Assembly (NCBI GenBank): GCA_038087875.1
Contig: CM075988.1
Coordinates: forward strand, 4,774,001 to 4,838,000
Direction: 5' to 3'
Source: Malacoraja senta
Lineage: Eukaryota
Length of the DNA: 64,000 bases
How positions within the stretch are numbered: the stretch's first letter is position 1; each line of letters opens with the position of its first letter. The translations under genes and the position numbers were made by a program. Under the pieces are notes generated by a model. That model saw nothing but the letters and a program-made list of their open reading frames with translations. It was not told the origin of the DNA and searched no databases. Positions 53,391 through 55,283 of this stretch are shown one piece after another.

Positions 53391-54522
53391 TAAGGGAGAG
53401 GTGTGGGGCATGTTTTTGACACAGAGAGTGGTGGGATCCTGGAACCCGCTGCCAGAGGTGCTGGTGGAGGAAGCTACGATCGTGGTGTTGAAGAGATTTT
53501 AGGATTGGTGTCTGGAAATGCAGAAAATGGAGGGAAGTGGATCACGTGCATGCAGAGCAAATTAGTTCAACTTAGCATCATGATTGGCATGGATATTACC
53601 TGATGAAGGGCCTGTTCCTATGCTGTACAGGATTAAGCTCTACTAGACTAAGTGCAGACCCATTGGGTCTGCTCACCCAATGCAAGATTCCACCACTCAC
53701 CCATTCTCCCACCACAACCCATCCCCCCAACGCAATATTCCACCACTCACACATAGCCCCTAACTGCACAGGCGCGGCTCATTTCTCCTCATCCCCAGCA
53801 CTACCTTCCCGTCCTCTTCACCCTCCCTCTACTTTCCCCTCTCCTCATCCCCTCCAACAATCCTTCCCTCACCTCTCCCTCCCTCTCCTTTCCCCTACCC
53901 TCCCTCCCTCCATAACTCCTCTCCCTCCCTACCCCCTCCTATCCCTCTAACCCCCACTCCTCACCTCCTCCTATCCCCCCAACCATCCGTCCTGACCATC
54001 CCCACTGCCCTCCTCTCCCTCCATTCCCCACTCCCTACCTCCCCCACTCCCCCCTCCTCTCTCTCTATTCCCCCTCTTCCTCACTTCCCCCACTTTCCCC
54101 TCTCTCCCTCACTACCGCCTCCTCTCCCTCAATCCCCCTCATTCCCCCTCTTCACCTCCCCAGCATCTTTGCCCACTCCTCCTTCCCTCCCTCACCTCTC
54201 CCTCCCTCTCCTTTCCCCTACCCTCAGTCACTCCCTCCCTCTCTCTATAAAAATCAGCATCTGCAGTTACTTCCTCCACAGGTCACTCATTGTTACCTGT
54301 GGTTTAGATCCCGTTGACTTGACGATTGGACCAGTTTGTATCGTTTGTGTGTGTGTGTGAGTTGCTCAAACTACGCACAAACTGCTCGGCCACCCTGCAA
54401 CCCGACTCTCCCTCCCTCCCTCTGCCCACTCCGGCCTGCCCGGCCGCCTACTGCTGCCGCTCGGCCCTTCCCCGCCCTGCCCACCCGCCTACCTGCCTGC
54501 CTGCTCGCTGCTGCCGGTGGGG

Positions 54523-54603
54523 ATGGAGTCGGTGTTCGTCACGGTGGGCATCACGAGTTTCGATGAGCTGATGGAGAAGATCTCCTCCGAGAGGGCCGTG
54601 AGG
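54523..54603 (+). pseudogene. ALG13: Copy of ALG13 (UDP-GlcNAc transferase subunit) first coding exon, inside Helitron H2
   Basis: ATG..81 nt encodes MESVFVTVGITSFDELMEKISSERAVR, then phase-0 donor GTGAGT. Matches the ALG13 N-terminal VFVTVGTTSFD motif; no exon 2 recognised downstream in the window. Confidence 0.85.
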
Positions 54604-55158
54604 GTGAGTTAATGCAGCGGCTGCGATGGCGGAGGAGACAGACGGTCACAGCCATTCACCCGGGGGGGACGGGTAGACGGGACCGCCATTGCCGTAGAGG
54701 GTGGGAGGGGGAGAGTGGTGAGTGAGGGAGAGAGAGATAGGACCAGGGCCTCCACTGAACCCCCCTCTCCCCCCCTCACCGCGGCCGCCGCCGGTGGTGG
54801 GGGAGACGGTAGACAAGTTATTGTGAGGAGGGGAGAGAGGAGTTTGTGAGTGAGGCAGGAGAGGCCACTGTGCAGGAAGGGGCATCGCCGTCCCGGTCAT
54901 GGCCTTGACTGACAGGAGAGGAGACCAATCTGCGTGGCGCTGACTGACAGGAGAAGAGACTAATCTGTGCATGCACGGTTTTTAAGATTTTTAAACTTTA
55001 ATATCTTCTAAATATACCATAGATCGGAACAAAACTTGTTGCACTTGCAGTACAGGAGAATGGTGAGTAAGGTGGCGAAAAATCATAGCACTATCGTGTA
55101 CCATCTTTGCACAAATAGAAAAACCACGCAAACCGGAAGTGCACAAGATCAGAGTTTT

Positions 55159-55283
55159 AGAGAGAGAGAGAGAGAGAGATAGATAGATAGATAGATAGAT
55201 AGATAGATAGATAGATAGATAGATAGATAGATAGATAGATAGATAGATAGATAGATAGATAGATAGATAGATAGATAGATAGA
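55159..55283. repeat. (AG)n(ATAG)n microsatellite forming the Helitron 5' terminus
   Basis: Directly visible. Confidence 0.9.

Follow-up and report, generated by a model that had tools for sequence, protein, structure and literature searches.

In the 64,000-nucleotide stretch of Malacoraja senta DNA analysed here (positions 4,774,001 to 4,838,000 of contig CM075988.1; hereafter the window), one copy of a non-autonomous canonical Helitron occupies 53643-55283 on the minus strand, and inside it, on the plus strand and therefore antisense to the element, lies a piece of the gene ALG13 of about 573 bp (54250-~54822). A sequence-only reading of the window had proposed that this is a transduplicated copy of the first coding exon of ALG13, carried by a Helitron together with a leader and a GTGAGT splice donor. 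The proposal is supported by the present work, in which every prediction open to checking came out in its favour; the leader, the 81-nt exon and the donor are all in place, and the cargo was found to be larger than had been recognised, with 273 bp upstream of the ATG, the exon itself and some 219 bp from the start of intron 1. The exon opens with an ATG at 54523, reads MESVFVTVGITSFDELMEKISSERAVR and is followed by the donor at 54604-54609, the kilobase around it (54001-55000) having a GC content of 0.60. Our best explanation, to which we give a probability of about 0.9, is that the element is an old and inactive non-autonomous Helitron, whose subfamily captured about 573 bp of ALG13 a single time and was spread by RepHel proteins acting in trans.

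The parental gene and the captured piece

A search of the genome with the Glyco_tran_28_C family identified a single multi-exon locus, on contig C7, the other matches being long single-exon frames of a different type. Exon 1 of this locus (5532565-5532645) reads MESVFVTVGTTSFDELVEEISSERAVR and is followed by exon 2 (5535748-5535910), only 3.1 kb further on, and by exon 3 (5539991-5540130), with canonical splice sites at all three. Exon 2 occurs at a single place in the genome and is 100% identical to a public protein of 1130 aa named ALG13 of a skate by its source, while for exon 3 the matches are structures of yeast Alg13 (E 3e-5); the N-terminus of the skate-named protein is exactly the product of exons 1, 2 and 3 of C7, which is thus the separate multi-exon ALG13 locus anticipated by the sequence-only reading. 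For each of the nine best relatives of exon 2 the source names a cartilaginous fish, in agreement with the chondrichthyan host assumed in that reading.

The window copy lies on another contig, C12. Its positions 54250-54840 align with C7:5532230-5532858 at 74% identity over 661 columns, and in a multiple alignment of the subfamily consensus, the parental gene and the window copy the homology to C7 runs from 54250 and ceases near 54822. The cargo consensus shows 86% identity to the parent overall and agrees with it at 78 of the 81 positions of the exon. Because the 27-residue exon peptide is too short for Pfam and PDB searches (no family was found in a Pfam scan, and no PDB sequence match at E up to 10), the identity of the cargo rests on the gene on C7. 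The left edge of the cargo falls in the tail of a short repeat of very high abundance, which also stands just upstream of the real ALG13 promoter. This repeat was seen at window 51600-51770 and 54250-54290 and at C7:5532200-5532260, and its summed contig depth amounts to millions in the sequencing runs of all four organisms surveyed (A to D).

The ALG13 proteins of a sawfish (P0004) and a shark (P0003) share the exon-1 pattern, with the GTT motif intact; the exon is thus an ancestral part of the gene, and the Helitron was the recipient in the transfer. On reading the alignment, the cargo consensus agrees with the skate-named protein at 26 of the 27 residues and with those of the other two species at 20 and 18 of 27, which places the capture on the skate side of the splits from sawfish and shark. 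No Helitron terminal regions were detected in the 30 kb of sequence that was fetched with the C7 gene at its centre or within it.

Copies of the element in the genome

All copy numbers given here are first-look candidate counts, not curated ones, obtained in the window's own 1.94-Gb assembly, in which 40 candidates per search were scored. The stretch containing the exon (window 54400-54720) gave 482 candidates, and the 39 scored places other than the window are 75-84% identical to it. The 5' region of the Helitron (200 nt at the right end) gave 4721, the scored places beyond the window, again 39, being 88-92% identical to it; elements with the exon thus make up a minority subfamily within a far larger family. 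Dispersed copies of the exon between the same termini had been predicted, and all fetched exon copies are bounded by the same Helitron ends: the right boundary, at 55159/60, was observed in 7/7 of them (one, L007, continues into a microsatellite of its own) and the left one, at 53641/2, was reached in 6/7, the comparison of boundaries having been extended to 36 loci. Since the same left and right boundaries recur elsewhere, the chance occurrence of this 1.5-kb unit is excluded. In eight copies the alignment is unbroken over both junctions of the cargo; ALG13 was therefore captured a single time.

Both backbone anchors were present at 28 loci, nine of which are sister elements carrying a different GC-rich middle, homologous among themselves and without ALG13. 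The low-complexity backbone at 53673-54249, which contains degenerate tandem units, is common to the copies with and without the ALG13 piece. The middle of the sister elements (L023, L027, L028, L030, L031, L033, L039, L041, and L045) contains two boxes of the CCAAT type, to which some copies add an ATG with GTGAGT immediately behind it; this middle may represent the ancestral backbone or another captured promoter.

Divergence from the subfamily consensus is 5-12% among the copies and 5% for the one in the window. In the exon alignment, one of the 14 rows other than the window has a stop as its second codon, in-frame deletions are present in seven, and the GT donor is missing from two. The conversion of GTT into GIT, which the sequence-only reading had pointed out, turned out to be private to the window copy, as none of these 14 rows has Ile and the family consensus has Thr. 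Likewise, in the contigs of the four sequencing runs almost all the depth reads C (Thr) at 54551 and G at 54571. The summed contig depth was 9255-25728 in the exon bin versus 18-51 in the bin 51000-51139, and although depth is not equivalent to copy number, this fits a high-copy family in all four organisms. The cargo still has a CpG observed/expected ratio of at least 0.6, at a GC content of 0.63-0.69, in 13 of the 15 element copies tabulated; of 587 ungapped cells at parental CpG positions 307 are kept and 172 are TG or CA, a count with no neutral expectation to set it against and hence indecisive on silencing.

At five loci (L003, L033, L036, L039, and L043) the right end of one element, from which the final four bases are missing (…GTTATGTA on the plus strand), directly adjoins CTAGAC… of the next in a head-to-tail junction, and many other 3' ends are followed by Helitron-5'-like sequence (TA…ACTAAA). 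Tandem or nested Helitron arrays thus seem to be common in this genome; the five junctions are compatible with rolling-circle transposition, which they do not prove. Some copies are alike including their flanks: L047, L048, and L049 (C241, C2:152256166, and C2:152260273) in the 211-nt right-end stretches, with the same alignment coordinates, and likewise L046 and L050 (C656 and C2:139921957). These may be segmental duplicates or redundant contigs and not separate insertions.

Ends of the element and insertion site

The 3' end agrees with what the sequence-only reading had described. CTAG is read directly at 53646-53643 on the minus strand, the next base being T, the complement of the A at 53642, and the stem of an 8-bp hairpin closes 7 nt ahead of CTAG, which is 11 nt ahead of the last base of the element. 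Folded as single-stranded DNA, the last 45 nt reach -8.9 kcal/mol, compared with a mean of -4.35 for 200 shuffled sequences (z = -2.69), only 3/200 of which folded as well. The stem is kept across 20 aligned 3' ends, in which 90.9% of the cells are paired versus 11.9-47.4% when the partner strand is slid. A second subfamily has GGGACCC/GGGTCCC instead of GCAGACCC/GGGTCTGC, one pair differing by a change of A-T to G-C in six rows; this paired change is probably a single event and hence gives weak but consistent support for the hairpin. Scanning all the fetched loci for the pattern of the 3' end returned 43 matches, eight of which lack the hairpin and seem to be fortuitous. The other 35 are genuine ends, and on the element strand the next base is T in 32 of them, the three exceptions being RepHel-coding copies that have one common flank; in 15/15 distinct left ends of the family an A stands directly before CTAG (or CTAA or TTAG) on the plus strand.

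As for the 5' end, a TC start had been claimed, and it stands for the family, not for position 55283. That position is inside a (GATA)n array (55161-55284; period 4, 31 copies, 99% matches) preceded by a short (GA)n run, and the TC at 55283-55282 therefore carries no weight by itself. Most of the other copies finish on the plus strand in ...GTTTTAGTTATGTATAGA and then T, that is, A|TCTATACATAAC on the element strand, from which it follows that the family starts with TC. The T of the plus-strand flank was read in 10/12 copies with a clean, non-repeated end; the remaining 5' ends of the family are GATA-type or similar arrays or adjoin another element. Microsatellites recur at this tip, mostly (GATA)n, also (GACA)n, (TAGG)n, and others (L004, L005, L007, L026, L029, L037, L038, L042, L044, and L047). 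They were apparently seeded by the terminal TATAGA, out of which the array of the window copy evidently grew as well.

Insertion between A and T without target site duplication had also been proposed, and the flanks are consistent across the copies of the family; on reading the flanks of copies having both ends, no target duplication was visible. Nor did the 3' end, when reverse-complemented, show by reading any match to the 5' end, as terminal inverted repeats would give. The TC start, CTRR end, subterminal hairpin, A|T target without duplication and absence of terminal inverted repeats are, at the level of sequence, those of a canonical Helitron (Helitron1).

The element sits in the tail of a CR1-like long interspersed nuclear element (LINE). 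The left flank, 53388-53642, gave 1697 first-look candidates, and the homology of the 39 other scored places (75-81% identity) mostly stops at ~53628-53630. Joining 53642 to 55284 in silico produces ...ctcta|tgttctatgtt, and the six LINE paralogues fetched all end in short tail repeats of the tctatg/tctgtg type, e.g. ...tgttctatgttctgtg. The joined sequence fits all six of these tails, just as expected from the earlier suggestion that removal of the element rejoins a CR1-type tail, and a precise A|T insertion, with the end of the microsatellite as right boundary, is therefore supported. Over 51000-55170 the contigs of the four sequencing runs are all short, and one of organism A (307 nt, 0 mismatches) spans 53363-53669; it enters the element for 27 nt, less than the 31 needed for bridging. 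The features of the locus are collected in Table 1.

Table 1. Features of the ALG13-bearing Helitron and its flanks, in window coordinates
Feature	Position	Strand	Remarks
CR1-like LINE 3' end, left flank	53388..53642	plus	Last base, A at 53642, is the target partner
Helitron 3' terminus	53643..53653	minus	ACTTAGTCTAG on the element strand, closing in CTAG
Subterminal hairpin	53654..53672	minus	8-bp GC-rich stem GCAGACCC/GGGTCTGC, 3-nt loop
Helitron backbone, low-complexity	53673..54249	minus	Rich in C/T on the plus strand and in G/A on the element strand
ALG13 upstream region with 5' leader, captured	54250..54522	plus	Homology to C7
Copy of ALG13 coding exon 1	54523..54603	plus	Open frame of 27 codons; GTT motif with Thr to Ile
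Captured start of ALG13 intron 1	54604..54822	plus	Opens with the GTGAGT donor
Helitron backbone, 5' (left terminal) region	54823..55160	minus	4721 first-look candidates
(GA)n(GATA)n microsatellite	55161..55283		In place of the last ~12 nt of the family (TCTATACATAAC on the element strand)
Right flank, remainder of the LINE tail	55284..55294	plus	tgttctatgtt; T at 55284 is the target T

RepHel-coding relatives

The Pfam family Helitron_like_N has 112 matches in this genome and none in 14 control prokaryotes. Stop-free RepHel frames of at least 1300 aa are found at nine places, the longest with 1766 aa, and the 1727-aa frame on contig C4719 contains the Helitron_like_N, PIF1 helicase and Pif1 2B (Pif1_2B) domains and an HUH motif. 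An identity of 97% over 4.9 kb between two of the RepHel copies is suggestive of recent activity. The terminal motif of the window element, ...CAGACCCAACGGGTCTGCACTTGGTCTAG, lies about 0.7-0.9 kb after the RepHel open reading frame in two of the three copies examined. When the 5' region of the non-autonomous elements was searched in the RepHel contigs, low-complexity and microsatellite matches only were obtained, with no longer homology; because the similarity of the 5' ends is limited to the first bases, the trans-mobilising partner is assigned by the 3' end alone. The frames of 1669-1766 aa (C4719, C3619, and C1:40.97 Mb; L058-L063) are set amid arrays of Helitron fragments and C/T-rich low-complexity repeats.

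Helentrons, or Helitron2, are known from fishes and are characterised by a T|T target, short inverted terminal repeats and an endonuclease domain. They resemble the family described here in being rolling-circle elements of aquatic vertebrates, but the latter has A|T targets and, by reading, non-inverted termini, and the Pfam scan of the 1727-aa RepHel frame shows Rep and PIF1-type helicase domains only. With these targets and ends, and with no endonuclease domain in that frame, the family does not agree with a Helentron/Helitron2.

Origin of the ALG13-bearing subfamily

The sequence of events that we envisage starts in the ancestor of the subfamily, which acquired once the upstream region of ALG13, its first coding exon with the donor and the start of intron 1. 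This piece lies antisense between the terminal regions on the left and on the right, replacing the GC-rich middle that the sister elements carry, and RepHel transposase supplied in trans would then have copied the composite around the genome, each insertion falling between a host A and T without duplication of the target; in the case of the window copy, the target was the tail of a CR1-like LINE. Afterwards the window copy drifted by about 5% from the consensus, with the change of Thr to Ile among its substitutions, and the microsatellite overgrew its 5' tip. For the capture itself we favour template switching or repair during replication as the putative mechanism, because no relic 3' end, as expected from read-through, is seen on reading beside the cargo (54823-54900), and because the cargo replaces an internal segment of the backbone. 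That the mobilisation of the composite was the work of RepHel elements acting in trans is suggested by the shared 3' motif, and the window copy is probably a functionless pseudo-exon.

Some observations weigh against this explanation. The 5' TC of the window copy itself is indistinguishable from the (GATA)n microsatellite, and the left terminal region of the RepHel elements is like that of the non-autonomous ones only in the first bases (TCTAT...). Both RepHel copies with the 3' motif continue into the same sequence beyond it, where the flank is A and not T, so that no autonomous copy was seen with an insertion boundary of its own. The copy numbers of the family rest on first-look candidates and not on curated counts, and the 30 loci taken from the search with the 5' region of the window copy were the best scorers against it, by which the share of ALG13-bearing elements among them is biased upward. 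Finally, no orthologous empty site was seen, none of the listed contig pieces of organisms B to D crossing 53642/53643.

Among the alternatives, the one that deserves most attention is that some of the copies serve as promoter or exon-trap cassettes, or as sources of antisense small RNAs directed against ALG13. The cargo unites an upstream region, an ATG exon and a donor, much as the exon-trapping cassette described for HelibatN3 of bats (PMC4778049), and the CpG content mentioned above is kept in most of the tabulated copies. The sampled copies, however, are decaying and give no sign of constraint, and by analogy with the bat element we hold such a role to be possible but rather doubtful. The same tentative standing applies to a broader proposal, that the genome holds an intact and perhaps still mobile Helitron, and that the ALG13 subfamily constitutes a dispersed set of promoter/ATG-exon/donor cassettes, some of which might drive or trap host transcripts.

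Much less probable is a mobile repeat of another kind, either a composite retroposon mobilised by LINEs, which would be read on the plus strand and end in the (GATA)n tail, or an element with terminal inverted repeats. The plus-strand end of the window copy is indeed a microsatellite, as in LINE-dependent elements, and the surrounding DNA is rich in LINEs. Most of the other copies, nevertheless, end in TATAGA without any repeat, neither a target duplication nor inverted termini are seen by reading, and the flanking A and T are consistent. Moreover, the cargo retains intron sequence and the region upstream of the gene, and the left end carries the hairpin-CTAG motif that is also found behind the RepHel open reading frames; we therefore regard these origins as very improbable.

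A genuine first exon of ALG13, with a long intron extending beyond the window and with Helitron-like ends that are due to chance or are unrelated fragments, could account for the open ATG-initiated exon, the consensus donor and the GC-rich surroundings. The sequence-only reading would have yielded to a single-copy exon spliced to exon 2, whereas what was found is a multicopy exon and a gene elsewhere: the window is on C12 and the multi-exon gene on C7, with exon 2 a mere 3.1 kb behind exon 1, and the public ALG13 protein corresponds to the C7 exons and not to the window copy. Neither exon 2 nor exon 3 was detected in the window (best tblastn E-value 0.41), including the 9.4 kb downstream of the exon for which the lack of exon 2 had already been reported, so that this explanation is hardly tenable. 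A functional ALG13 gene in the window is ruled out by the same absence and by the location of the gene on C7. The reverse transfer, in which a Helitron would have supplied the first exon of the ALG13 gene on C7, is equally implausible: homology alone gives no direction, but the N-terminal exon is present in sawfish and shark ALG13 too, the surroundings of the C7 gene contain no Helitron terminal region, and the closeness of the consensus to the skate-named protein compared with the other two points to a lineage-specific copy of the host gene.

Comparison with other gene-capturing Helitrons

As a non-autonomous Helitron with a single captured gene piece, the ALG13-bearing subfamily finds its closest known counterpart in HelibatN3 of vesper bats, which carries the promoter, six codons and the splice donor of NUBPL, and for which exon trapping and chimeric transcripts have been demonstrated (PMC4778049). 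Both are canonical Helitrons present in many copies, with a host promoter, the first coding residues and a donor as cargo. They differ in host, gene and length of the coding part, namely a bat, NUBPL and six residues in one case and a cartilaginous fish, ALG13 and 27 residues in the other; besides, exon trapping was shown experimentally in the bat, whereas the present family is known from its sequence. In addition, the bat transposase had to be reconstructed (PMC4778049), whereas RepHel frames are still open in the skate genome.

Heli1Xen1 of Xenopus laevis is another vertebrate Helitron1 with non-autonomous copies that carry mostly 5' fragments of genes, 17 of the 19 captured coding fragments being derived from the 5' end of the gene (PMC12001565). 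At least one autonomous copy with an uninterrupted open reading frame and tandem arrays derived from Helitrons were also described in that frog. The host lineage and the captured genes are different from those reported here, and the copies per fragment are few (e.g. 17 and 6), against hundreds of candidates for the ALG13 piece. The Helitrons of maize and other plants likewise have gene fragments between TC... and ...CTRR and insert between A and T (PMC2575219, PMC4528327), and chimeric transcripts can arise from them; they often join fragments of several genes, unlike the single contiguous promoter-exon-intron piece of the ALG13 subfamily.

No report of gene capture by Helitrons in cartilaginous fishes was found in the literature searched, which included the passages on Helitrons in PMC6817897, PMC5381603, and PMC10468316, and a full-text search returned no paper mentioning both Helitron and ALG13. 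Sharks and skates go unnamed in the main text of a large survey of Helitrons (PMC11417382). The event is thus of a known kind, Helitron gene capture, newly seen in cartilaginous fishes. Its interest lies in the fact that the capture of promoters and first exons by Helitrons has been documented, in bats, frogs, plants, and insects, as a way in which new transcripts arise. With a known parental gene, one capture and many datable copies, the ALG13 subfamily offers a marker for dating the activity of Helitrons in skates, and the open RepHel genes are candidate natural transposases to set beside the reconstructed bat element. It also calls for care in annotation, since false first exons of ALG13 may be called by the hundred. 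Should the genome indeed hold an intact mobile Helitron together with ALG13 cassettes, these would be the cartilaginous-fish counterpart of HelibatN3.

Other sequences in the window

An AT-rich block at 33000-47000 (GC about 0.30) contains LINE genes on the minus strand, among them a frame of 920 aa (39262-42024) with a reverse transcriptase domain, which is overlapped upstream by an endonuclease-type frame (41993-42865), and a second reverse transcriptase frame is found at 35107-36411. Apart from the exon copy, the long frames that were scanned in the window and gave a family match code for LINE reverse transcriptases and one endonuclease. A degenerate (CA)n array (49763-50679; about 460 units, 71% matches) is responsible for the extreme skew, in GC as in AT, of positions 50001-51000, and closer to the element 25 units of the heptamer TAGAACA form an array at 52834-53007.

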